Numbered from the stretch's first letter, positions 1 to 11,798 are shown. The stretch: DNA of 64,000 bases from Sphingobacteriaceae bacterium (GCA_043763625.1 JAYULL010000171.1:16077-80076); one strand, 5' to 3'. The notes: generated by a model not told the origin, from the sequence alone. Translations and numbers: made by a program.

Positions 1-914
1 CTCGTCCGTTAATTCGTACCATCGTAAAAGTGGTTGCGCCCAAAATTGGAGATAAAATATATGATGGTGCTGTAGGTAGTGCGGGTTTCTTGGTAGAAGC
101 ATTTGACTACCTGCGCTCTGCAAAAAACCTGACTACAAAGGATATAGAAATTCTTCAGAAGAAAACCTTCTACGGCAAAGAAAAGAAATCGCTGGCTTAC
201 ATCATCGGTACCATGAACATGATTCTCCATGGTGTAGAAGCTCCCAATATTATACATACCAACACGCTTGCCGAAAACATTGCCGATATTGAAGAGAAAG
301 ACCGTTATGATGTAGTTCTGGCAAACCCTCCATTCGGTGGTAAAGAGCGTTTAGAAGTACAGCAAAACTTCCCGATTAAAACCGGCGAAACGGCTTTCTT
401 ATTCTTACAGCATTTTATCAAAATTTTAAAGGCTGGGGGTAAAGCGGGTATTGTAATTAAAAACACCTTTCTTTCTAATACAGATAATGCGTCTGTAAGC
501 TTGCGCAAACAGCTTTTAGAAAATTGCAACCTGCATACGGTGCTCGATTTGCCGGGCGGAACGTTTACCGGTGCCGGTGTAAAAACGGTGGTTTTATTTT
601 TTGAAAAAGGAGCCCCAACCGCAAAGGTTTGGTTCTACCAACTAAACTTAAGCCGGAATTTGGGCAAGGGCAACCCTTTAAATGAAACAGATCTTGCAGA
701 GTTTGTAAATCTGCAACAAGCCAAAACGGATAGTGAGAACTCGTGGTCTGTTAACGTTGCCGAAATTAATACAGCTACTTGCGATTTATCAGTTAAAAAC
801 CCGTTTAAGAAAGAAACAGCGGCATTACGCTCGCCGCAAGAAATTTTAGATGAGATGAAAGCTTTGGATGAGGAGAGTGCGGATATTTTAAAGGGAATAA
901 TGGAATTGATATGA
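1..914 (+). CDS. hsdM: Type I restriction-modification DNA methyltransferase subunit HsdM; 5' end lies outside the window
   Basis: Frame is open from nt 3 (RPLIRTIVKVVAPK precedes the first ATG at 30). AdoMet motif GAVGSAGFL and catalytic motif NPPFGG are present. The stop overlaps the next start (ATGA at 911-914). Confidence 0.9.
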   Translation, partial: RPLIRTIVKVVAPKIGDKIYDGAVGSAGFLVEAFDYLRSAKNLTTKDIEILQKKTFYGKEKKSLAYIIGTMNMILHGVEAPNIIHTNTLAENIADIEEKDRYDVVLANPPFGGKERLEVQQNFPIKTGETAFLFLQHFIKILKAGGKAGIVIKNTFLSNTDNASVSLRKQLLENCNLHTVLDLPGGTFTGAGVKTVVLFFEKGAPTAKVWFYQLNLSRNLGKGNPLNETDLAEFVNLQQAKTDSENSWSVNVAEINTATCDLSVKNPFKKETAALRSPQEILDEMKALDEESADILKGIMELI

Positions 915-2110
915 GAGAGGGTTGGGAAATAAAGAAGTTGGGAGAAGTTTGTGAAAAGATCACGGATGGTACCCACCAAACTCCGACATATTTTGATGAA
1001 GGTGTAATCTTTTTGTCTTCTAGAAATGTAACCAGTGGTGAAATTGATTGGTTTAATATCAAGTATATAGATACGAAACAACATCTAGAAATGCACAAAC
1101 GTGTCGCACCACGTTTGAACGATATTTTGTTAGCCAAGAATGGAACAACAGGAGTTGCGGCAATAGTAGATAGGGAAGTGACTTTTGATATTTACGTTAG
1201 TCTTGCCCTATTGAGACCTTTAAAAAGTTTAATGCCGAGATATTTATTGTTTTTTATCAATTCTCCGTTAGCCAAAAATCAATTTAACAGTAGATTAAAA
1301 GGAGTTGGTGTACCAAACCTTCATCTAAATGAAATAAGAGAGGTTGAAATTCCGCTTCCGCCCCTCCCCGAACAACAACGCATCGTTTCAATTTTAGATG
1401 AAATCTTTGCGGCGATAGCCATAGCAAAACAAAACGCAAAAAAAAACCTCCAAAACGCTAAAGAGCTTTTTGAAACGTATTTGCAAAGTGTGTTTGAGAG
1501 GAAGGGAGAAGGTTGGGAGGAGAGGACGTTGGGAGATATTGGTAAAGTTTCAATGTGCAAGAGAGTGTTTAAAGACCAGACAACTAACTCAGGGGATATT
1601 CCTTTTTATAAGATTGGAACTTTTGGAAAGGTACCTGATGCTTTTATCTCCAATGAAATTTATAATGAATTCAAAAGGAAGTTCTCATTCCCAAAAGAGG
1701 GCGACGTCCTTTTATCTGCATCGGGTACAATTGGAAGAAGAGTAAAGTATGATGGTGAACCTGCATATTTTCAAGATTCAAATATTGTATGGATTAATAA
1801 TGATGAAAAACAAGTGTTGAATGATTATCTATATCAATTTTATGGAGCCTGTAATTGGAATTCAACAAAAGGAGCGACCATTTCAAGATTATACAATGAC
1901 AATCTGAATAGAATAGAAATTGCATTTCCAAAATCACTTGCAAACCAGCAAACCATCGTCCATAAACTCGATGCCCTTTCGTTTCAAACCAAAAAACTCG
2001 AATCCATTTACCAGCAAAAACTATCCAACCTCGAAGAATTAAAGAAAACCATATTACAAAAAGCCTTTGCGGGAGAGTTGAAAGATATAGAACATGCAGT
2101 AGCCGTATGA
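911..2110 (+). CDS. hsdS: Type I R-M specificity subunit HsdS with two target-recognition domains
   Basis: 399 aa. Two conserved spacer helices (LPPLPEQQRIVSILDEIF and PKSLANQQTIVHKLDAL) each follow a variable domain. Start and stop overlap the flanking genes. Confidence 0.85.
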   Translation: MREGWEIKKLGEVCEKITDGTHQTPTYFDEGVIFLSSRNVTSGEIDWFNIKYIDTKQHLEMHKRVAPRLNDILLAKNGTTGVAAIVDREVTFDIYVSLALLRPLKSLMPRYLLFFINSPLAKNQFNSRLKGVGVPNLHLNEIREVEIPLPPLPEQQRIVSILDEIFAAIAIAKQNAKKNLQNAKELFETYLQSVFERKGEGWEERTLGDIGKVSMCKRVFKDQTTNSGDIPFYKIGTFGKVPDAFISNEIYNEFKRKFSFPKEGDVLLSASGTIGRRVKYDGEPAYFQDSNIVWINNDEKQVLNDYLYQFYGACNWNSTKGATISRLYNDNLNRIEIAFPKSLANQQTIVHKLDALSFQTKKLESIYQQKLSNLEELKKTILQKAFAGELKDIEHAVAV

Positions 2111-2724
2111 CGCCACAGAGACTAAACGATTTACTTGACGAATTAGTTAAACAACCTACAGAAAGTGAGTGGGTAGAATTTAAACACAATTTTCATTCTG
2201 CAGAAGAAATCGGAGAACGGATATCTGCAATTTCAAATGGCGCTTGCCTGCAAAATCAGGCATTCGGTTATCTTGTTTTTGGGATCCAAGATATTACGCA
2301 TCAAATTTTAGGCACCTCTTTTAAAGCTAAAACTTATAAAAAGGGCGGCGAAGATTTAGAACATTGGCTGGCAACACGTTTAAATCCGCGAATTGATTTC
2401 AGCGTTTTCGAATTTGATTATGATGAAGGGCGGCATATTTCTATGTATGTAATACCTGCCACGAATTCGCGTCCGGTTGAGTTTTTAAACAAGCCATATA
2501 TCCGGGTTGGCAGTATCACTCGAAATTTAGGAGAGTTTCCTGATAAAGAAGCTCGAATATGGCGGAAGCAATTCATCTCTTTTGAAAAAGAAATAGCCGA
2601 ATTTAATTTGAATGCTTCGGATGTCATTCGCTTATTAAGTACCCAAACTTATTTTGATCTGCTGAAACTGCCTTATCCATCTGATCAAAGGGTGTTATTG
2701 ATAAATTTCTTTCTGAAGGTTTGA
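2107..2724 (+). CDS. AlbA_2 (Schlafen-like) domain protein; N-terminal part of a frameshifted AlbA_2/HATPase_c_4 gene
   Basis: ESEWVEFKHNF...AISNGACLQNQAFGYLVFGIQD matches the AlbA_2 (PF04326) signature. The ATGA overlap with the hsdS stop indicates coupling. The frame ends at 2724, but the +1 frame is already open from 2685. Confidence 0.6.
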   Translation: MTPQRLNDLLDELVKQPTESEWVEFKHNFHSAEEIGERISAISNGACLQNQAFGYLVFGIQDITHQILGTSFKAKTYKKGGEDLEHWLATRLNPRIDFSVFEFDYDEGRHISMYVIPATNSRPVEFLNKPYIRVGSITRNLGEFPDKEARIWRKQFISFEKEIAEFNLNASDVIRLLSTQTYFDLLKLPYPSDQRVLLINFFLKV

Positions 2725-3554
2725 TTGTAAAAGAAAAAAGCAGTTTTTCGATAACTAAATTAGGAGCTGTCCTTTTTGCCAAAAGTCTAAGTGATTTTGA
2801 ATCCGTTCATCGTAAAACTATCCGTGTAATAGTTTACAAAGGCAAAAATAAAGTACAAACAGAACGCGAACAAATTGGCGGCAAAGGGTATGCCCTGGGA
2901 TTTGAAGGTTTGGTAGATTGGATAAACAGCCAATTACCGGCAAACGAAGAAATAGGCAAAGCGCTAAGAACTGAAACAAGAATGTATCCTGAAATCGCTA
3001 TCCGCGAAGTTGTGGCAAATGCTTTAATCCATCAAGACTTTTCTGAAAAGGGATTTCCAATGATTGAAATTTATTCAGACAGGATAGAGGTTTCTAATTC
3101 GGGCATTCCGCTAATTACTCCTGATAGATTTATTGATGAATATGTTTCAAGAAATGAAAGCCTGGCAGATTTGATGCGCCGAATGGGCTTTTGTGAGGAA
3201 AAAGGAAGTGGTATGGATAAGGTTATTTTTTATAATGAGCTGTATCAGTTACCGGCTATTAATGTAATTATAACAGATAAAAGGACTAAAGTGACTCTGT
3301 ATAGCTATAAATCATTAAATGATACAGATAAGAAAGATAAAATCAGAGCCTGTTATCAGCACGCCTGTTTAAAATATGTGTCTAATGAAAAAATGACTAA
3401 TCAAACCCTGCGTGATCGATTTAAAATTGAAGACCACAATTATGCAACTGCGTCCAGAATTATTAGGGATGCTATTGAAGAAGGCGTGATAAAAGAAGAT
3501 GACCCAACAAACAAATCCAGAAAATATGCAAGTTATATTCCTTTTTGGGCCTGA
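2721..3554 (+). CDS. HATPase_c_4-type ATP-binding/wHTH protein; C-terminal part of the same frameshifted gene
   Basis: REVVANALIHQDFSEKGFPMIEIYSDRIEVSNSG matches the HATPase_c_4 (PF13749) signature. This frame reads SKGVIDKFLSEGLIVKEK from 2685, continuing the upstream ORF after a 1-nt slip. Confidence 0.6.
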   Translation: MIVKEKSSFSITKLGAVLFAKSLSDFESVHRKTIRVIVYKGKNKVQTEREQIGGKGYALGFEGLVDWINSQLPANEEIGKALRTETRMYPEIAIREVVANALIHQDFSEKGFPMIEIYSDRIEVSNSGIPLITPDRFIDEYVSRNESLADLMRRMGFCEEKGSGMDKVIFYNELYQLPAINVIITDKRTKVTLYSYKSLNDTDKKDKIRACYQHACLKYVSNEKMTNQTLRDRFKIEDHNYATASRIIRDAIEEGVIKEDDPTNKSRKYASYIPFWA

Positions 3555-3559
3555 ATCTT

Positions 3560-3644
3560 ATGTGATGGTCATGTGATGGAAATGCTATATTTAAAACTAA
3601 TAGCTTGATATATAGATCATTATTATGTGATTGTTATGTGATTG
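3560..3644 (+). promoter_or_regulatory. Four direct ATGTGATKG repeats in two 11-bp-phased pairs upstream of hsdR; candidate operator
   Basis: ATGTGATGG occurs at 3560 and 3571, and ATGTGATTG at 3625 and 3636. They lie in the 147-bp gap before the hsdR ATG at 3702. Confidence 0.3.
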
Positions 3645-3701
3645 AACCATTTAAATACAAAATTTTAAGCCTGAAACTAATCTCGAAATACAGTTAAAAT
3701 A

Positions 3702-6026
3702 ATGAACGAAGCAGAAACCCGGGCCGAATTAATTGACCCTCAACTAACAGCAGCGGGCTGGGGCTTGGTAGACGGAAGCAAAGTACATCGAGAGTTTAAC
3801 ATCACTGCCGGAAAGATAAAAACAGGCGGCGGAAGGGCGATGCCCTTAAAAGCCGATTATGTTTTAAGTTATAAAGACCGCAAGCTTGCTGCCATTGAAG
3901 CCAAAAGCGATATTCAGGAAGTAGGCGAAGGCGTTGCTCAAGCCAAAGATTACGCGGAGAAGCTTCAACTGGATACCACGTTTGCGGCAAACGGTAAAGA
4001 GATTTACCGCATCTGCATGAAAACGGGTAAAGAGGGATTAGTCGCCAATTTTCCAACCCCACAAGAACTATGGGATCATACTTTTGGAGATCAAAATACT
4101 TGGAGAGATCAGTTTGATGCAGTCTCATATCCCGATATCAGCGGAACTAAAAAACCTCGTTATTATCAGGAACTTGCGGTAACCAGGGTAGTAGACGCCA
4201 TCGCAAAAAACCAACAACGTATTTTATTAACCCTTGCAACCGGGACAGGTAAAACAACCATAGCCTTTCACATTGCATGGAAACTGTTTCAAACCCGCTG
4301 GAACCTACAACGTGACGGAAGTCGCAGACCACGGGTTTTATTTTTGGCTCACCGTAATATACTAGCCAATCAGGCGTTCGGCGAGTTTACTGCTTATTCA
4401 GCTTTTAGCGAAGACGCCTTGGTGCGAATAAATCCCGCAGAAGTAAAGAAGAACGGAAGGGTACCCACAAACGGCAGTATATTCTTTACCATCTTCCAAA
4501 CGTTTATGTCGGGGATGGATAGAGACGGTAATCCGGTACCAAATTTCGGGGAGTACCCCAAAGATTATTTCGACCTTATTATTATCGACGAATGCCATAC
4601 CGGTGGTGCAAACGCCGAAGGTAATTGGCGTGGAATTCTGGAATACTTTTCTCCTGCCGTTCAGCTTGGTTTAACCGCCACCCCTAAACGGAAGGATAAC
4701 GTAGATACCTACGCCTATTTTGGTGAACCTGTTTATATCTATTCACTAAAGCAAGGTATCAACGATGGTTTCTTAACTCCTTTTAAGGTAAAGCGCATAC
4801 AAACAACAGTGGATGAGTATATCTATACTAGTGATGATATCTTGATGGAAGGCGAAATCGAATATGGTAAAACTTACACAGAAAAGGATTTTAACGTTAC
4901 TATAGAGATTAAAGAGCGGGAAAGGAAGCGTGTGCAGCTTTATCTGGCTGAGGTTGATCAGAAAGCAAAGGCGATTGTGTTTTGTGCTAGTCAGGGTCAC
5001 GCTGCCCTAACGCGGGACTTGATTAATCAGAATAAAAAATCAACAGCAGCGAACTACTGTGTTCGTGTAACTGCCAACGATGGCGGCTTAGGCGACCAAT
5101 ATTTAAAGGAGTTTCAGGACAATGAGAAATCATTACCCACTGTTTTAACAACTTCCCGCAAACTTTCTACCGGAGTGGATGCTCGTAACGTTCGTAACAT
5201 TGTATTGCTTCGCCCGATTCGGGATATTATTGAATTTAAACAAATAGTTGGTCGGGGAACCCGTTTGTTTGATGGCAAAGAGTTCTTTACCATTTACGAT
5301 TTTGTCGATGCTTATAAACATTTCGCAGATCCGGAATGGGATGGAGAACCTTTAGAACCCGAACCGGCAACACCTCGTCCGCCCGTTGGGACACCATTGC
5401 CGCCGGGAGATGGAGGCGAACCGACTGCTCCGCCAAAGCAAAAAATCAAAATTAAACTTCGAGACGGAAAAGAACGCGAAATACAACACATGATGTCCAC
5501 TTCATATTGGAGTGCTGATGGTCGGCCGATTTCTGCTCAAGAGTTTTTAGATAATCTGTTTGGTGCTTTACCGGCATTATTTAAAGATGAAGATGAACTC
5601 CGCAGCATCTGGTCTAATCCTTTAACCAGAAGAACCCTACTTGAAAAGCTGGATGAAGCCGGTTTCGGGAAAGAAGAATTGACAGTTGTGCAGAAACTGA
5701 TCAATGCGGAGAAAAGTGATTTGTTTGACGTGCTGGAGTATGTGTACAACAGCAACTTTACCCCGATATCCAGAGAAAACAGGGTTGTAAACGCGCAACC
5801 AAACATCTTTGCACTTTTGAATGATAATCAAAAAGAATTTTTAGAATTTGTGCTTGCTAAATATATAGAAACAGGAGTTGAGGAACTCGATGAAGAGAAG
5901 CTGCCTAAGCTGTTGGAACTGAAATACCATTCTTTGAATGATGGAGCGCAAAAGTTGGGTGGGGTGAAGGTGATAAGGGAAACGTTTATAGGATTTCAGA
6001 AGTGGTTGTATGAGGAAGTGGGATAG
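3702..6026 (+). CDS. hsdR: Type I restriction endonuclease subunit HsdR (SF2 helicase/nuclease with an EcoEI-R-type C-terminal domain)
   Basis: 774 aa. Walker A LATGTGKTT, DEAH-box IIIDECH, and helicase motif VI QIVGRGTR are present. A Pro-rich linker PEPATPRPPVGTPLPPGDGGEPTAPP precedes the C-terminal domain. Confidence 0.9.
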   Translation: MNEAETRAELIDPQLTAAGWGLVDGSKVHREFNITAGKIKTGGGRAMPLKADYVLSYKDRKLAAIEAKSDIQEVGEGVAQAKDYAEKLQLDTTFAANGKEIYRICMKTGKEGLVANFPTPQELWDHTFGDQNTWRDQFDAVSYPDISGTKKPRYYQELAVTRVVDAIAKNQQRILLTLATGTGKTTIAFHIAWKLFQTRWNLQRDGSRRPRVLFLAHRNILANQAFGEFTAYSAFSEDALVRINPAEVKKNGRVPTNGSIFFTIFQTFMSGMDRDGNPVPNFGEYPKDYFDLIIIDECHTGGANAEGNWRGILEYFSPAVQLGLTATPKRKDNVDTYAYFGEPVYIYSLKQGINDGFLTPFKVKRIQTTVDEYIYTSDDILMEGEIEYGKTYTEKDFNVTIEIKERERKRVQLYLAEVDQKAKAIVFCASQGHAALTRDLINQNKKSTAANYCVRVTANDGGLGDQYLKEFQDNEKSLPTVLTTSRKLSTGVDARNVRNIVLLRPIRDIIEFKQIVGRGTRLFDGKEFFTIYDFVDAYKHFADPEWDGEPLEPEPATPRPPVGTPLPPGDGGEPTAPPKQKIKIKLRDGKEREIQHMMSTSYWSADGRPISAQEFLDNLFGALPALFKDEDELRSIWSNPLTRRTLLEKLDEAGFGKEELTVVQKLINAEKSDLFDVLEYVYNSNFTPISRENRVVNAQPNIFALLNDNQKEFLEFVLAKYIETGVEELDEEKLPKLLELKYHSLNDGAQKLGGVKVIRETFIGFQKWLYEEVG

Positions 6027-6135
6027 TCCGAATAGGTTAATGTAATACAAGTTTTTTAAATTAAGGTTTCTTCTGATAGTGCGGACACGAACTGGGGAAG
6101 ACGAATTAAATAATATAATCTAATATACCACACAA

Positions 6136-6936
6136 GTGAGCGTTTTTCGAGGAAATATTGATAACTGGCTGCGTCAGTGCGAGCCCGACTACTATTCTTT
6201 TTTTTTACGTGCATGGATCCCTTTTAATGCATGGTATGTAGCGGAGATGCCGCAACATAATAAAAAGGATCGTTTGTTAATTAAGGAATTGCAGGAAAAT
6301 ATGAATAGCAGGCCTCGATTACGTATTCAGGGATTGCTCACTAATGATGACTACGAATCGGAAAATTTTAAATACCACCTATCATTATTACATTATAATC
6401 TTGAAAAAAAGAATGTTTCCCATGATGGAAAAAAGCTTTCGTTTTGTTCAATAACCCTAACAGATAATCCAGTTAAGCATTCGAGTAAAGTAGATAAAAA
6501 AAGCAACAGATATAAGGCAGAAGTACAAAATACTTATTATGAAGCATTAATTGTGGCTCAAAACGGGAAGACGCTTATGCACTATAAACACCCGGGTTTT
6601 GACATAGAACATTTGAGGCGACATATAAAGTTTATAGGATTGGCCGATAAAAAGATTCAAGAAATTATTGCTGAATGTTACGCGAATATTGACCCCAATA
6701 AGCCCACCAATTTAGTTACAAATTCGAAAAAAAAAGGCGATTATATTTTTTTAAATTCTGATCAACCAGCCAAATTCGTTAATGATCAAATCACAATAGG
6801 AAAAGCAATCATTGGAGTACTTTATATGCTTCGGTGTATGCTTTTTCACGGTGAAATAGACCCTACTGATAGCAATAAAGTTTTATATGAACACTCCTAC
6901 TATCTACTTCGATTAATTCTTAAAGACTTGAACTAA
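6136..6936 (+). CDS. Hypothetical protein with a C-terminal HEPN-like R-x4-H motif
   Basis: 266 aa with a GTG start. The motif is VLYMLRCMLFHGEIDP (R-x4-H-G). The stop lies 1 nt before the next ATG. The gene looks AT-rich by eye. Confidence 0.5.
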   Translation: MSVFRGNIDNWLRQCEPDYYSFFLRAWIPFNAWYVAEMPQHNKKDRLLIKELQENMNSRPRLRIQGLLTNDDYESENFKYHLSLLHYNLEKKNVSHDGKKLSFCSITLTDNPVKHSSKVDKKSNRYKAEVQNTYYEALIVAQNGKTLMHYKHPGFDIEHLRRHIKFIGLADKKIQEIIAECYANIDPNKPTNLVTNSKKKGDYIFLNSDQPAKFVNDQITIGKAIIGVLYMLRCMLFHGEIDPTDSNKVLYEHSYYLLRLILKDLN

Positions 6937-6937
6937 A

Positions 6938-8710
6938 ATGAATCACGCAGCAAATAACATTGAAGCCAAAAGTAAAACGCTCAAGGACCTCTTAAAAGAG
7001 CGTAAATATCAAGTTAAATATTTTCAAAGAGAATATAAATGGGAAAAGAACCATATCGAAGACCTTATTATAGATTTGGAAAAGAGCTTTTTTTCAAATT
7101 TTCAAGTCGAACATACACGAGAAGACGTGCCCGACTACGATTGTTACTATATGGGGCCTGTTGTGCTTTATAGGGAAAAATCTTCTTTTGTTATAGTCGA
7201 CGGTCAACAACGACTAACTTCCTTTACTTTATTATTGATATATCTAACCCATTTGCAAAAAGAAATTTTTGTTGGAAATAAAAAGAAGATACAAAATTTA
7301 GATGAATATATCTATTCACAGCCTTATGAGAAGGAGACGTTTAACTTAGAAATTCAAGAACGCGAGGACATACTAAGGTGTTTATTTAAAAGTCTTGATC
7401 TGGAAGACGGGTTTCTCCTTAATGAATCCTCCCAGAATATATTAGACAGATATATTGATATAGTTGAATTATTCCCACCTACGCTAAAAAAAGACTATGT
7501 ATTACCCTTATTTATTAATTGGCTTGTCGAGAAGTTGATATTTATTGAAATACTGTCGCAGTCCAGTGATAGTGCCTATACGATCTTTGAAACAATGAAC
7601 GACAGAGGATTAAATCTTACTCAGTCAGAAATGTTAAAAAGTTATCTTTTATCAAGTGTGAAAGATGAGGAAAAAATAAAAGAACTTGACGCGGCATGGA
7701 AACAGAAAATTAGCTTAATTAAAACCTATAGTAGTGACGAAGATCAAGATTTTTTTAAAGCTTGGTTAAGAGCCAAATATGCTGTGGGCATAAGGACTAC
7801 CGAAAAAGGTGCTATTAACGAGGATTTTGAAAAAATTAGTACCAGGTTTAGCAATTGGGTTCAGGACAATTCTAAAAGATTGTTGAATTTAAATACTCCT
7901 GACGATTATTTTTATTTTATTGAGTCTGATTTCGATTTCTTCAGTGATATCTATTTGAAATTGTCCGAGATGGAGTTTAGCGAGAGTTTGCCAGAGCAAA
8001 GGTTTAAGTTACTTTCATACAAAGGTATTTCCCAATCATTGTCTTATCCTTTAATAATCTCTACAATTCAAAAGATTGATGATAACGAAACGGTGAATAA
8101 AAAGATAGAAACTTCGGTAAGTTATCTTGATTCTTTTTCAATTTATAGATTGCTATTAAATGAGTCAATAACTCATAGTACTGTTCGAAACAAAATATAC
8201 ACTAAAATAAAGGAGATAAGAGACAAAAGTTTTGAAGAAATAAGGGAAAACCTAAATGGCGAGATTGAGGATCTAAAGAAGCGATTTTTGAAGGAGATAG
8301 ACTATATTCCTTTTTATCCTAACTTCGGAAAATATGTCTTAGCGAGGGTATATAAGAGTAGAAATCCGCCTTTGTTTTTCGAAAATATCTATTTTCAAAG
8401 AAGGACAGCTTCTCTTGTCTTATTTCATTTTTTTACCCTTGACGATGTTGATGTAGAAGTACAAAAATTACCGAAAGGCTTGAAGGATATTATCATCAGA
8501 AGTTTATGCTCATACTGTTTGGTTACAAAAGAAGTTTTCAGTGAAGTGTCACGTCTCTCTTTGGTGAAGCGAATCCAATACTTGCTAAATAAGGGGTTTA
8601 TTTATGAATTTTCCGATCTCAAAGAAGTCGATTTAACAAATTTAAGAGAGTTCTTTATTACCCGTAATAAGCGTATGAAAGAGACTGTCATTAACTTGTG
8701 GAAGGTATGA
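6938..8710 (+). CDS. DUF262 (GmrSD N-terminal, ParB-like NTPase) domain protein with no recognisable DUF1524 nuclease domain
   Basis: 590 aa. Motifs YFQREYKW, VDGQQRLTS and FETMNDRGLNLTQSEMLK are present. No (D/E)HxxP...GNxxL His-Me signature was seen in the C-terminal ~250 aa. Confidence 0.8.
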   Translation: MNHAANNIEAKSKTLKDLLKERKYQVKYFQREYKWEKNHIEDLIIDLEKSFFSNFQVEHTREDVPDYDCYYMGPVVLYREKSSFVIVDGQQRLTSFTLLLIYLTHLQKEIFVGNKKKIQNLDEYIYSQPYEKETFNLEIQEREDILRCLFKSLDLEDGFLLNESSQNILDRYIDIVELFPPTLKKDYVLPLFINWLVEKLIFIEILSQSSDSAYTIFETMNDRGLNLTQSEMLKSYLLSSVKDEEKIKELDAAWKQKISLIKTYSSDEDQDFFKAWLRAKYAVGIRTTEKGAINEDFEKISTRFSNWVQDNSKRLLNLNTPDDYFYFIESDFDFFSDIYLKLSEMEFSESLPEQRFKLLSYKGISQSLSYPLIISTIQKIDDNETVNKKIETSVSYLDSFSIYRLLLNESITHSTVRNKIYTKIKEIRDKSFEEIRENLNGEIEDLKKRFLKEIDYIPFYPNFGKYVLARVYKSRNPPLFFENIYFQRRTASLVLFHFFTLDDVDVEVQKLPKGLKDIIIRSLCSYCLVTKEVFSEVSRLSLVKRIQYLLNKGFIYEFSDLKEVDLTNLREFFITRNKRMKETVINLWKV

Positions 8711-8926
8711 ACAAAGAGTTTTAATCTTCTGCTCTTGTTGGTGTTGTCACCAAAAAGCCTGAAGGAGATTGCCCGAATCAGAATACTATCGATACTCGTC
8801 TTCTCGGTTTTATATCGTGGTTATGACGAGATTTAAGATGGTGAGCAGTTTTGTTGGTAACAATACCAACAAAGGCGGAAGTATAGCAGTGCAATTGATT
8901 ACAGCGGAGGAAAAGGCTTTTTTTCT

Positions 8927-8975
8927 CCGCAGAGTCTCCTGCGCCAAAGCAATAACCCTGATAGGGACTCTGCGG
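8927..8975 (+). repeat. REP-like hairpin (CCGCAGAGTC ... GACTCTGCGG), family A
   Basis: Perfect 10-bp inverted repeat. It sits 33 bp upstream of a RAYT-like ORF remnant. Related copies lie at 11998, 13948 and 16178. Confidence 0.6.
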
Positions 8976-9007
8976 TAAACGTATCTTTCTCGTACCTTTA
9001 GTCAACT

Positions 9008-9283
9008 ATGCCTGTCAGAAGAACTATTCACGAATCTCAGGGAATCTATTTCATTACTTTCACTTGTGCACGTTGGCTAAAATTATTTAAACTGACGAAC
9101 AGCTATGATCTCGTCTACAATTGGTTCAATTACCTCAGCAAGCAAGGGCATCATATTATCGGTTATACCGTAATGCCCATCACGTTCATGCGATAATTGC
9201 TTTTAAGAATACCGAACCTTGCCCGGAAGCGTACAGTCAATCGATATGGCTGAGACGAACAGCAACCAACGTAAATTAACATT
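9008..9283 (+). pseudogene. REP-associated tyrosine transposase (IS200/IS605-like HUH Y1) remnant, frameshifted and truncated
   Basis: The ORF reads MPVRRTIHESQGIYFITFTCARWL...GYTVMP then ITFMR-stop. A 1-nt shift restores MP(N)HVHAIIAFKNTE, the HUH motif. The remnant is cut off by the next gene. Confidence 0.6.
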
Positions 9284-9340
9284 ATGTGGGCTAACGAATT
9301 TTCCTTAAATTCATTCCCGCACTTCAATACCCAAACAGCT

Positions 9341-10918
9341 ATGAAAAAAGAAATCTCCGCGTCCGAAACGAAAGACGATCTATCGGGGAAGGCCTCCGGC
9401 ATGAGCCGCCGCCAATTTGTTTCACTGACCGGCACAACTGCACTTGGCTTCTCAATTGTACCAAGACACGTGCTGGGAGGTACCGGCTATATCGCACCCA
9501 GCGATAAGATCACGATGGCTTATATCGGCATGGGTACACAGGGCATTCGTGAATTGTTACCGCTCCTAACCGTTCCGGAAATTCAGGTAGTGGCTGTTTG
9601 TGATCCTTGCAAAGAAGCAAGAGGCTATCGCGATTGGGACATCAATTCCCTTAAAAATGAAGTGCGTAAAGCACTCAACAAGCCTGACTGGACTCCCGGC
9701 GGCGACAACACGATCCCGGGAGGATTGGACAACGGCAAAGAGATAGTAGAAGCTTGGTACGCATCGATGCGCCCCGACAAAAAGTACAAAGGCTGTGCGG
9801 CCTATGCGGATGTGAGGGAATTGTTGGAAAAAGAAAAAGGCCTTGATAGTGTCAGGATCATGACACCTGACCACCTGCATGGAGTTTTAGCAATGGCCGC
9901 AATTAAAAGGGGAAAGCATGTGCTGATGCATAAACCGCTCTCTAACCGTTTGCTGGAAGGAAAGAAGGTAATTGAACTAGCCCGTAGCCGCCCTAAGGTG
10001 ATCACACATCTGATACCTTGGGACTCTAACGGTTCTATGGAGACGGTAATGGCCTGGATTAACGCAGGTGCCATCGGCAAACTTACTGAAGTGCACAACT
10101 GGACCAACCGGCCGGTGTGGCCGCAATTTCCTGAACTGCCTACGGACAAGCCTCCGGTTCCCGAGGGCTTTAACTGGGATCTTTGGCTCGGCCCTGAAAG
10201 CGATCGAGCTTATCATCCTAACTATACTCACATGGTTTTCCGAGGCTGGTACGACTTTGGTGGCGGCGCGATGGCGGACATGGGACATTACAGCCTTTGG
10301 ACGGTATTTGAAGCACTGCGGTTAACCTCTCCAACATCCGTGGAACCGCATCGCAGCCATGTAGTCAGCTTTAACGGCCCGGTGCCCTCTCAGATAAATA
10401 ATGATTTTTCTTTCCCGTTGGCCACCTCGGTACGTTTCCGCTACCCGGCAAATGAAGCTCGTGGGCCGGTAGACTTATTTTGGTACGATGGCGGCATGCG
10501 ACCTGCTGTACCGGAAGAACTGTCAGCCGTATACAAAGAGTTGCCGGCGGAAGGAATGCTGTTCGTGGGGGAAAAGGGGAAGATCCTCACAGGCTTTCGC
10601 CTGGAGGACCCGCAGATTATTTCGGGAATCAAAATGGAGGCGCCGGCGGGGGTAGTACAAAAAATTAGTGGCCGGGTACAAATGACGACCGAGGCATTGC
10701 CGCGGTTTGTACAAGCCTGTAAGGCCGGCAAGCAATACCCGGGTAGTTTTTCGGATGCAGGTTATATAACCGAAGCCGTAAACCTCTATGCGGCAGCCCT
10801 GCGTGCCAATAAACTACTCAAATACGATGCAGCTTCCGGTAAGATTACTAATGTGGAAAGCGCTAATAAGTACCTGCAGCGCGACTACCGGCCGGGATGG
10901 CAGCTTGGTTCCATTTAA
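9341..10918 (+). CDS. Gfo/Idh/MocA family oxidoreductase with a twin-arginine signal peptide
   Basis: MSRRQFVSLTGTTALG is a TAT motif, and a Rossmann fold begins at MAYIGMGTQG. The ATG at 9341 is preferred over 9284, which overlaps the transposase remnant. Confidence 0.85.
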   Translation: MKKEISASETKDDLSGKASGMSRRQFVSLTGTTALGFSIVPRHVLGGTGYIAPSDKITMAYIGMGTQGIRELLPLLTVPEIQVVAVCDPCKEARGYRDWDINSLKNEVRKALNKPDWTPGGDNTIPGGLDNGKEIVEAWYASMRPDKKYKGCAAYADVRELLEKEKGLDSVRIMTPDHLHGVLAMAAIKRGKHVLMHKPLSNRLLEGKKVIELARSRPKVITHLIPWDSNGSMETVMAWINAGAIGKLTEVHNWTNRPVWPQFPELPTDKPPVPEGFNWDLWLGPESDRAYHPNYTHMVFRGWYDFGGGAMADMGHYSLWTVFEALRLTSPTSVEPHRSHVVSFNGPVPSQINNDFSFPLATSVRFRYPANEARGPVDLFWYDGGMRPAVPEELSAVYKELPAEGMLFVGEKGKILTGFRLEDPQIISGIKMEAPAGVVQKISGRVQMTTEALPRFVQACKAGKQYPGSFSDAGYITEAVNLYAAALRANKLLKYDAASGKITNVESANKYLQRDYRPGWQLGSI

Positions 10919-10943
10919 TTCACTTCAAAAAAGAAACTAAACA

Positions 10944-11798
10944 ATGAAGCGCAAAGCATTCCTAAAAACAACCGCCACCGGTCTTGGAGGTGCGTTTTTC
11001 CTGGCCCATTTACCCGGTCAGCTGCTAGCTGCCACCCGCCTAATGAACATTCCGCTCGGTTTCCAAACTTGGGTGGTAAAAGACGCCCTCGCCAATGACT
11101 TTTCCGGTACACTGAAAACGATGGCCGCAGAAGGCTTCCGGACGGTAGAAATGTGTTCGCCGAAAGGATACGAGAAAATGGGTTTTGGCCCGCTTGCCGC
11201 AATGAAGGTATCCGACATGCGCAGCATCATCACAGATGCCGGGTTAACCTGCCCAAGCTGCCATTATACGTTTACCGAATTGACGGCACAAAACCTTGAT
11301 GAGAGTATTGAATTTGCAAAGCAGTTGGGAATCAAGCACATGATCTGTTCTCACCCGGGCCTGCCGGCGACGGCAACACTTGACGAATACCTGTTGCGAG
11401 CCGATGAGCTTAACAAAGCGGCTGAGAAGATAAAAAAAGCGGGGCTTCAGCTGGGCTATCACAATCACAGTATTGAGTTTGCTGTGTTGTCCGGCCGGCT
11501 GATATATGATGCGCTTCTTGAGCGTTTAGACCCGACGCTGGTAAAAATGCAGTTTCAGACGGAAGTGATCAATCTTGGTTACAAAGGCGCCGATTATTTC
11601 AAGAAGCATCCCGGCCGATTTATTTCAGCTCACCTCTCCGACTGGACAGCGGACAAAAAGGAGATGCCGATAGGAAAAGGGGTAATAGACTGGAAAGAAT
11701 TTTTTGCAGCTGCAAAAAATGCAGGCATAGAAACTTTTTTTGTGGAGATGACACCCGTAACTTTTAAAGAAAGCGTCAGGTATATACGTTCCCTTTAA
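10944..11798 (+). CDS. Sugar phosphate isomerase/epimerase (xylose isomerase-like TIM barrel), secreted
   Basis: 284 aa with an N-terminal signal-like segment KRKAFLKTTATGLGGAFFLA. The pairing with a Gfo/Idh/MocA gene is typical. Confidence 0.75.
   Translation: MKRKAFLKTTATGLGGAFFLAHLPGQLLAATRLMNIPLGFQTWVVKDALANDFSGTLKTMAAEGFRTVEMCSPKGYEKMGFGPLAAMKVSDMRSIITDAGLTCPSCHYTFTELTAQNLDESIEFAKQLGIKHMICSHPGLPATATLDEYLLRADELNKAAEKIKKAGLQLGYHNHSIEFAVLSGRLIYDALLERLDPTLVKMQFQTEVINLGYKGADYFKKHPGRFISAHLSDWTADKKEMPIGKGVIDWKEFFAAAKNAGIETFFVEMTPVTFKESVRYIRSL

Follow-up and report, generated by a model that had tools for sequence, protein, structure and literature searches.

The window analysed here is a 64,000-nucleotide stretch of DNA from a Sphingobacteriaceae bacterium (GCA_043763625.1 JAYULL010000171.1:16077-80076), and this analysis concerns two adjacent open reading frames (ORFs) within it. 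ORF A (6136-6936, plus strand, GTG start) encodes a stand-alone, probably HEPN-like protein of 266 amino acids (aa), the proposed effector. ORF B (6938-8710, plus strand) encodes a 590-aa protein of GmrSD/DndI/SspE type, with a DUF262 nucleoside triphosphatase (NTPase) domain, a helical middle domain and a degenerate DUF1524 domain. A and B form a real, strictly conserved two-gene module in which the pairing holds in both directions, and this module is a credible candidate defence system. In the mechanism that we favour, B would sense DNA and drive A, a candidate RNase effector; we give this a probability of roughly 0.5.

The junction of the two genes reads ...AAC TAA A ATG..., leaving 1 nucleotide (nt) between the stop of A and the start of B. 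A first-pass annotation of this DNA had already given these coordinates, the GTG start and the 1-nt gap, and both the ORF calls and the junction agree with it. This tight arrangement is a property of the family. A genome scan limited to one genome per species returned 71 loci, 68 of them with a recognisable full A homologue. In 31 of the genome loci, as in the window, the start of a full-length B homologue lies -4 to +9 nt from the end of A, and the gap is exactly 1 nt in 17 of these 31. They are all the testable genome loci on the B-linked side of the A tree; a further member there (L005) ends at a contig edge. Pairwise distances among A proteins and among B proteins correlate (r=0.72).

For the reverse direction, metagenome contigs were searched with B. 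Matches fell into two classes, either full-length or restricted to residues 1 to ~471, and 64 full-length relatives with enough upstream DNA were counted. The E-H...N triad of the nuclease domain is intact in 25 of them, and A lies directly upstream of none (0/25); it is degenerate in the other 39, and A lies directly upstream of every one (39/39). One locus, L087, had appeared to hold a dead nuclease without A, but this was an overlap in ORF calling, and A was confirmed there by hhalign (E=7e-56). A is present in 71/71 testable cases. The sister clade with the canonical nuclease is 40-46% identical to B over residues 1-471. Plasmid relatives that lack A match the Pfam model GmrSD_C, as seen in Pantoea (40% identical, residues 1-471), on a Lactobacillaceae plasmid and on E. 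coli plasmids, whereas the A-linked B proteins give no match to this model. Co-conservation, suggested in the first-pass annotation as a check on the pair, is thus found both ways, at the 31 genome loci and in the metagenomic 39/39.

The N-terminal part of B bears the features of an intact DUF262 domain. Pfam GmrSD_N aligns to residues 15-238 (E=2e-30), and the three DUF262 blocks noted in the first-pass annotation are all in place: YFQREYKW at 28-35, DGQQR at 88-92 and FETMNDRGL at 217-225. The NTP-hydrolysis motif of DUF262, D88-GQQ-R92 (7199-7213, plus strand), is intact in the window and conserved in 32/32 A-linked B proteins. DGQQR is needed for defence in HEC-06 (10.1101/2024.01.29.577857) and in DndI (PMC11662687).

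The C-terminal part is of another kind. Pfam GmrSD_C/DUF1524 gives no match in B, and the first-pass annotation had found no DUF1524 signature there and took B to lack its usual nuclease. A MAFFT alignment against relatives that do match GmrSD_C instead places a vestigial His-Me finger at 8414-8551 (plus strand). In the window protein, LVLF-H498-FF aligns to the canonical x-E-H-I-x, and SLCSYCLVTKEVFSEVS aligns to IGNLxLLxxxxNxS, for which the B family carries similar strings. At x-E-H-I-x the family reads LF-H (window only) or YQ, FQ, TP, IN, HR or YK. Over the 32 A-linked B proteins the catalytic columns retain Glu in 1/32, His in 3/32 and the final Asn in 2/32. The AlphaFold model of B (mean predicted local distance difference test score, pLDDT, 85) has a strand-strand-helix element at residues 493-497, 526-530 and 531-537, the position of the His-Me finger, so the fold appears to be retained. 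The earlier claim therefore stands for the active site, which is dead to judge from these columns, and fails for the domain, which is kept as a degenerate homologue. Because the C-terminus is homologous to DUF1524, its catalytic residues have decayed and the strand-strand-helix is kept in the model, B is by its motifs a pseudo-nuclease rather than a truncated protein: an NTPase-competent and nuclease-dead member of the GmrSD/DndI/SspE group.

These counts also bear on a simpler view, that B is an ordinary single-chain GmrSD enzyme with a divergent nuclease and A an unrelated neighbour. The homology of the B C-terminus to GmrSD_C and the His at the catalytic column of the window copy speak for it. 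The first-pass annotation had itself named a divergent DUF1524 as the finding that would turn B into such an enzyme. Yet the catalytic columns are unconserved (H 3/32, E 1/32, N 2/32), 0/39 A-linked metagenomic proteins keep the triad, A occurs in 71/71 testable cases, and at the genome loci start and stop are spaced at -4 to +9 nt. We regard this view as very improbable and largely refuted.

Comparisons of the whole protein point to the same relatives. In Foldseek, the full-length B model matches SspE (7drs) at 3e-10, DndI (9jfl) at 8e-10 and BrxU at 1e-3; the TM-score against DndI, 0.46, is higher than that against SspE, and DndI is also the best PDB sequence match of B. The best PADLOC matches are HEC-06 and 'Orf5' DUF262 models, which cover only residues ~5-440; of the HEC-06 models, PDLC04154 covers only residues 5-281 and PDLC04157 only residues 5-440. 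The 'Orf5' models, PDLC02686-PDLC02702, are a large DUF262 set and fit B up to residue ~440 nearly as well as HEC-06.

The partner protein is defined by a short motif. ORF A carries VLYMLRCMLFHGEIDP, with R233...H238 followed by G239. This R-x4-H candidate catalytic dyad, R233-C-M-L-F-H238 and then G239 E240, is encoded at 6832-6849 (plus strand). The R-x4-H dyad picked out in the first-pass annotation is borne out by conservation, as R and H are found in 69/69 aligned family members (the window and 68 genome loci). Among 44 diverse representatives only W11, L89, Y230, R233, H238 and Y251 are invariant. A second strongly conserved block, W27-IPFNAWY-34 (6214-6237, plus strand; positions invariant or at least 90% conserved), lies in the first long helix, and within it W27-x-x-FNAW33 is at least 90% conserved among the same 44 proteins. 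The residue that follows R differs with the genomic partner: it is Asn in 31/36 restriction-modification (R-M)-linked members, giving the canonical HEPN form R-N-x-x-x-H-G, and Cys in 29/33 B-linked members.

The family is large and mostly unfused. A word-indexed search found 142 homologues and an exhaustive HMMER search 501 clusters at 50% identity, nearly all of them stand-alone proteins of 255-290 aa. They come from Bacteroidota, Cyanobacteria, Verrucomicrobiota, Bacillota, an archaeal metagenome-assembled genome (MAG) and a Klebsiella conjugative plasmid; the family is absent from a phage collection of 50,697 records. The AlphaFold model of A is confident (mean pLDDT 91, predicted TM-score 0.83) and consists of N-terminal helices, an alpha/beta insert at ~93-217, a helix at 218-238, a loop and a last helix at 248-265. 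The R233...H238 dyad is placed where the penultimate helix (218-238) ends and the loop begins. HEPN domains, as characterised in a 2013 catalogue (PMC3710099), carry Rx4-6H at the same helix position and a large insert between the N- and C-terminal helix pairs.

Libraries give this protein no name, in agreement with the first-pass annotation. Searches of A against Pfam, NCBIfam, PADLOC and PHROGs give no match. No above-threshold family was found for 25 + 44 members, for family consensus sequences or for insert-deleted constructs, and an exact-sequence lookup of A returned no record. PADLOC-DB v2 has no match for the window protein or for five other members, the sole PADLOC exception being one cyanobacterial member with a chance-level NsnC match (0.0064). 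None of the Pfam HEPN models, PF18737 among them, matches any of 69 scanned members. Below threshold, Pfam reports mostly unrelated families; DUF4209 recurs in three A sequences, at 0.014 and (at the motif) 0.18, and HEPN_Swt1 appears in one at 0.059. DUF4209 is counted as a HEPN family (C6orf70 family) in the 2013 catalogue (PMC3710099). UniRef names three homologues 'Apea-like HEPN'. A TerB_C match (E=5.8e-5, under the gathering score) arose only with an artificial insert-deleted consensus, was absent in nine real insert-deleted sequences and was therefore discarded as an artefact of composition. The motif, the helix topology and these weak matches make a HEPN-like fold of A probable, though not established.

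The perfect anticorrelation between an intact DUF1524 triad and A would also suit a different function of A. A might act on DNA and replace the lost His-Me DNase, in which case the two genes would encode a split, modification-dependent type IV restriction enzyme instead of an abortive-infection system. Restriction enzymes made of two genes, GmrS1 + GmrSD2, are on record (PMC12373910), and the HEPN fold of A is unproven. We find this unlikely, since R-x4-H(G), or R-N-x-x-x-H-G, at a helix end is the HEPN RNase signature, A resembles no DNase fold in the Foldseek PDB and Pfam searches, and the R-M-linked loci already have a functional-looking DNase motif.

These R-M-linked loci represent a second context of the A family. 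Among the 37 genome loci without B, 35 link A to a BcgI-like or fused R-M system. In the BcgI-like arrangement an HSDR_N_2+N6_Mtase protein (nuclease-methylase, RM; ~690 aa) is followed by an S subunit (~475 aa) and by A as the third gene; in the cyanobacterial layout A precedes an AloI-like R-M-S fusion of ~1180 aa. In a neighbour-joining tree the R-M-linked A proteins group as a single clade. Their operons are found in Bacteroidota, Verrucomicrobiota, Cyanobacteria, Melainabacteria, Chloroflexota, Bacillota, Planctomycetota and an archaeal MAG, and the third gene of the BcgI-like operons is unannotated everywhere. The order RM-S-A is present at L010, L019, L023-L026, L028, L030, L032, L034, L035, L041 and L045, and further at L047-L049, L052-L054, L056-L062, L065 and L069. 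In all of these A lies at ~10001-10800 of the locus and the R-M genes at ~6300-10000; L022, L027 and L040 give the same observation of an R-M-linked A. PADLOC assigns the R-M-linked methylases to its 'Type I MTase' model (E ~1e-285). The idea that the R-M nuclease beside A is dead, making A a universal nuclease, was rejected on the conserved D...E-x-K.

A related locus, L075, on the Klebsiella pneumoniae conjugative IncF plasmid NZ_LR890357.1 (2553-10507), is a defence island that encodes RM (674 aa), S and a 'hypothetical protein' of the A family. Some 500 bp further on it encodes a DUF262+DUF7834 and a DUF262+GmrSD_C protein, which resemble GmrS1/GmrSD2 of ECOR17.

That A partners two unrelated DNA-reading modules could mean that it is a non-catalytic adaptor or regulator, or a PrrC-like guard, which couples readers of DNA modification (B, or the BcgI-like M-S complex) to an R-M nuclease elsewhere or to a transcriptional response, with R and H used for binding. 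Non-catalytic HEPN domains such as MtlR are known (PMC3710099), and the conserved aromatic W-IPFNAWY block could be an interaction surface. Set against this, both R and H stay unchanged through ~500 clusters from several phyla, as catalytic residues typically do, and many A-B pairs occur in a housekeeping context with no R-M gene within 10 kb; we think such a role improbable. Tentatively, and short of even odds, the two contexts may instead be read as those of a portable effector family, either HEPN-like or with a new R-x4-H fold, that serves two unrelated machines reading DNA modification and converts detection or anti-restriction into RNA-level abortive infection. One machine would be the GmrSD-type NTPase, its dead His-Me finger reused for docking or relay, the other the BcgI-like nuclease-methylase-S complex. 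The trigger would be non-self DNA, or inhibition of the R-M system by phage anti-restriction proteins.

Several observations weigh against the view that B drives A as an RNase effector. First, the Fisher test for triad state against presence of A (p ~6e-17 when computed before L087 was resolved, or about 1e-16) overstates independence, since the 39 and 25 proteins are two sister clades and not 64 independent events. Second, the window copy of B keeps a His at the catalytic column (F-H), although without the acidic residue and the Asn, and some residual nuclease activity of this copy is conceivable. Third, the fold of A finds no significant relative: the best Foldseek hits of the model are at E=0.08 in PDB and E=0.065 in BFVD (viral), the A profile reaches no better than E=0.25 against PDB sequences, and current Pfam does not reproduce the UniRef name 'Apea-like HEPN'. 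The HEPN assignment made in the first-pass annotation accordingly keeps its motif, helix topology and weak matches, while the structural and profile searches lend it no significant match. Fourth, the PD-(D/E)xK motif (RADIV...VELK) is conserved in the A-linked R-M nuclease-methylases, which concern about half of the family. Because of this conservation, A in the R-M operons is an addition and not a substitute nuclease; Replacing a lost nuclease would then not describe A fully, and it may also regulate or guard. The proposal that A supplies the effector missing from B is consistent with the presence of A beside every degenerate triad, but does not extend to the roughly half of the family that sits in BcgI-like operons with an intact nuclease.

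The surroundings of A-B differ from locus to locus. Elsewhere the pair neighbours type I R-M genes (L001, as in the window), a type ISP R-M system (L006) or a type IIG R-M system (L004), and at L039 an Abi_C gene (AbiJ-type HEPN, 8986-9924) lies directly upstream of A. At L009, L055, L063 and L067 the pair stands among plain housekeeping genes. Five loci combine RM-S with A-B. At L012, an AAA_21/OLD-like ABC ATPase gene (9889-11589) follows RM-S genes. Apart from A, no conserved neighbour of B was found, ATPase genes and dnd or ssp modification genes included. The R-M adjacency emphasised in the first-pass annotation is thus frequent and involves several R-M types. Given such varied neighbours, A-B is an autonomous, mobile cassette that often docks onto R-M loci.

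Tight coupling, low GC content, mobility and varied contexts are likewise expected if A is a toxin and B its neutraliser, in a toxin-antitoxin-like addiction module that stabilises a mobile R-M island and involves no phage sensing; HEPN toxins are common in toxin-antitoxin systems (PMC3710099). However, a 590-aa partner with an NTPase motif in 32/32 proteins and a DNA-binding architecture is atypical of an antitoxin. Sensing is indicated both by the gene order, in which the toxin precedes a large multidomain protein, and by ancestry within a defence family that has been validated (HEC-06, DndI, SspE). An addiction module is therefore distinctly unlikely in our estimation.

The favoured mechanism, in which B senses DNA and A is the output, can be outlined as follows. 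An ancestral single-chain enzyme of the GmrSD/HEC-06/DndI type would have acquired A, after which its own His-Me active site decayed. B keeps the DUF262 NTPase (DGQQR) and the helical, putatively DNA-binding middle domain, which in relatives reads the modification state of DNA. As the A stop lies 1 nt before the B start, the two proteins are likely to be produced jointly and to assemble into a complex. B would scan DNA with NTP hydrolysis and, on meeting phage-type (modified or otherwise non-self) DNA, undergo a conformational change that the vestigial nuclease domain would pass to A. Activated A, as a HEPN-like output whose invariant R-x4-H dyad probably cleaves RNA, would shut down translation and lead to abortive infection or growth arrest. 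Such a relay has a model in SspE and DndI, where a DUF262 NTPase senses a DNA mark and a conformational switch controls the C-terminal domain (PMC11662687; PMC12065111). In the window, the pair would be a second defence layer, carried at the tail of a type I R-M island gained by horizontal transfer.

Known DUF262 systems share parts of this design. With HEC-06, GmrSD and BrxU, B has in common the DUF262 motifs (QR..W, DGQQR, F..MN), the helical middle domain and a DUF1524-homologous C-terminus; it differs in its decayed (D/E)H...N...N and in the obligate upstream gene A. HEC-06, a validated single-gene member, depends on its DGQQR motif as well as on its EH nuclease motif (10.1101/2024.01.29.577857), and the A-B pair has neither a full-length match including the EHICP nuclease motif nor the single-gene layout. 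GmrSD architectures known so far are single-gene and two-DUF262-gene enzymes (PMC12373910). Like A-B, the GmrS1 + GmrSD2 systems of ECOR17 type consist of two genes with one DUF262 protein lacking a nuclease (PMC12373910), but in those systems another DUF262 protein, whose nuclease is active, serves as partner, whereas in A-B the partner is an unrelated 266-aa HEPN-like protein and the pair retains no active His-Me finger. DndI and SspE are DUF262-HNH nickases that sense phosphorothioate; over the full length they are the structures that fit the B model best, and their NTPase-driven conformational switch provides the mechanistic template. In contrast, the HNH residue N541 needed for DndI function has no conserved counterpart in B, and no linkage to dndBCDE or sspABCD was found beside B, where the annotated flanks are R-M or housekeeping genes.

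The closest logic is found elsewhere. Menshen (NsnA-NsnB-NsnC), Dazbog and PD-T4-2 are DUF262 systems without DUF1524, and for Menshen a sensor, an ATPase transducer and an RNase/DNase effector are proposed (PMC12065111). They share with A-B a nuclease-less DUF262 sensor and a separate effector, often an RNase-type toxin. Unlike Menshen, A-B has no ABC-ATPase transducer, A is no inPIN-BECR protein, and B keeps a vestigial DUF1524, which is absent from NsnA; the best 25 of the 26 PADLOC matches of B include no Nsn, Dzb or PD-T4-2 model. PrrC/RloC and the HEPN genes of R-M operons likewise tie a HEPN-type motif protein to R-M or ParB-DUF262 genes and embody the idea of an RNA-level backup (PMC3710099), but PrrC/RloC has a fused ABC-ATPase, and A (266 aa) has no ATPase domain. 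The MAE_28990 HEPN family has a context strikingly like that of A, a likeness drawn from its one-line description in the 2013 catalogue (PMC3710099). DUF262 genes linked to type I R-M operons have long been known, RloF being an example (PMC4619093).

A-B consequently falls outside GmrSD, HEC-06, Menshen, Dazbog, PD-T4-2, PrrC/RloC and DndI/SspE, and its logic is shared with the Menshen type. The first-pass annotation had presented the composition as matching no named system. This holds in so far as no PADLOC-DB v2 model detects A, and less so in view of the precedents set by Menshen, Dazbog and PD-T4-2 (PMC12065111). A design without precedent it is not, since the 2013 catalogue already lists operons in which HEPN genes accompany those of ParB/DUF262 nucleases and of methylases (PMC3710099). 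A-B looks like a further form of the 'DUF262 sensor + separate effector' theme, undescribed but not unprecedented.

In the window, the pair follows a type I R-M operon (30-6026), which is context and not a conserved part of A-B. On the plus strand, and assigned by Pfam, are hsdM (30-914, cut by the window start), hsdS (911-2110), a 205-aa ORF with an SLFN_AlbA_2 domain (2107-2724; Pfam AlbA_2), a 277-aa HATPase_c_4 ORF (2721-3554) with a TTG start and a 4-nt overlap with the preceding stop, and hsdR with ResIII + EcoEI_R_C domains (3702-6026). An independent metagenome contig has the identical gene order with a full-length hsdM. The AlbA_2 and HATPase_c_4 ORFs are either two genes or a single Schlafen-like ATP-binding protein that has been split or frameshifted, and could be a third embedded defence gene. 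The AlbA_2 ORF has a weak PADLOC PDC-S50 match (5e-7). Prokaryotic Schlafen nucleases have recently been reported as anti-phage effectors (PMC13056530).

The position of the pair downstream of hsdR on the same strand, as first annotated, is correct, with a gap of 109 nt (6027-6135, plus strand). This spacer showed no terminator-like site when searched for one and no Rfam match, and co-transcription of A-B with hsdR is possible. Searches around the pair gave no Rfam family, no terminator and no meaningful repeat. The AT-richness relative to the genes from 9.3 kb onward, another early claim, extends further than proposed: with GC contents of 0.343 (A) and 0.324 (B), the pair is the most AT-rich stretch of the entire window, whose remainder has a median GC of 0.402 and a lowest 2.5-kb stretch of 0.354. 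The block at 9.3-11.5 kb has a GC of 0.47-0.52. Between them, 8711-9283 is the right-hand edge of the low-GC island, GC rising from ~0.33 to ~0.5 within 1 kb. It holds a 62-aa ORF (9008-9196, starting MPVRRTIHESQGIYFITFTCARW...) that gave no Pfam match and that we presume to resemble an N-terminal fragment of an IS200/RAYT-type transposase.

Two of these results go beyond the first-pass annotation, the anticorrelation of nuclease integrity and A in sister clades and the occurrence of the A family in BcgI-like operons. A is a widespread orphan family of ~500 clusters at 50% identity and an unannotated third component of BcgI-like R-M operons, missed by annotation pipelines and by PADLOC. The sister clades, one with its own nuclease intact and the other with a decayed nuclease and a partner gene, offer a clean natural experiment on how DUF262 signals are transmitted to an output domain. 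If A is indeed a portable effector, these clades would show an exchange of effectors, from DNA cutting to RNA cutting, caught in the act. If A-B is a defence system, it would be a fourth GmrSD/DUF262 architecture, beside the single-chain, the two-DUF262 and the Menshen-type sensor-transducer-effector forms.

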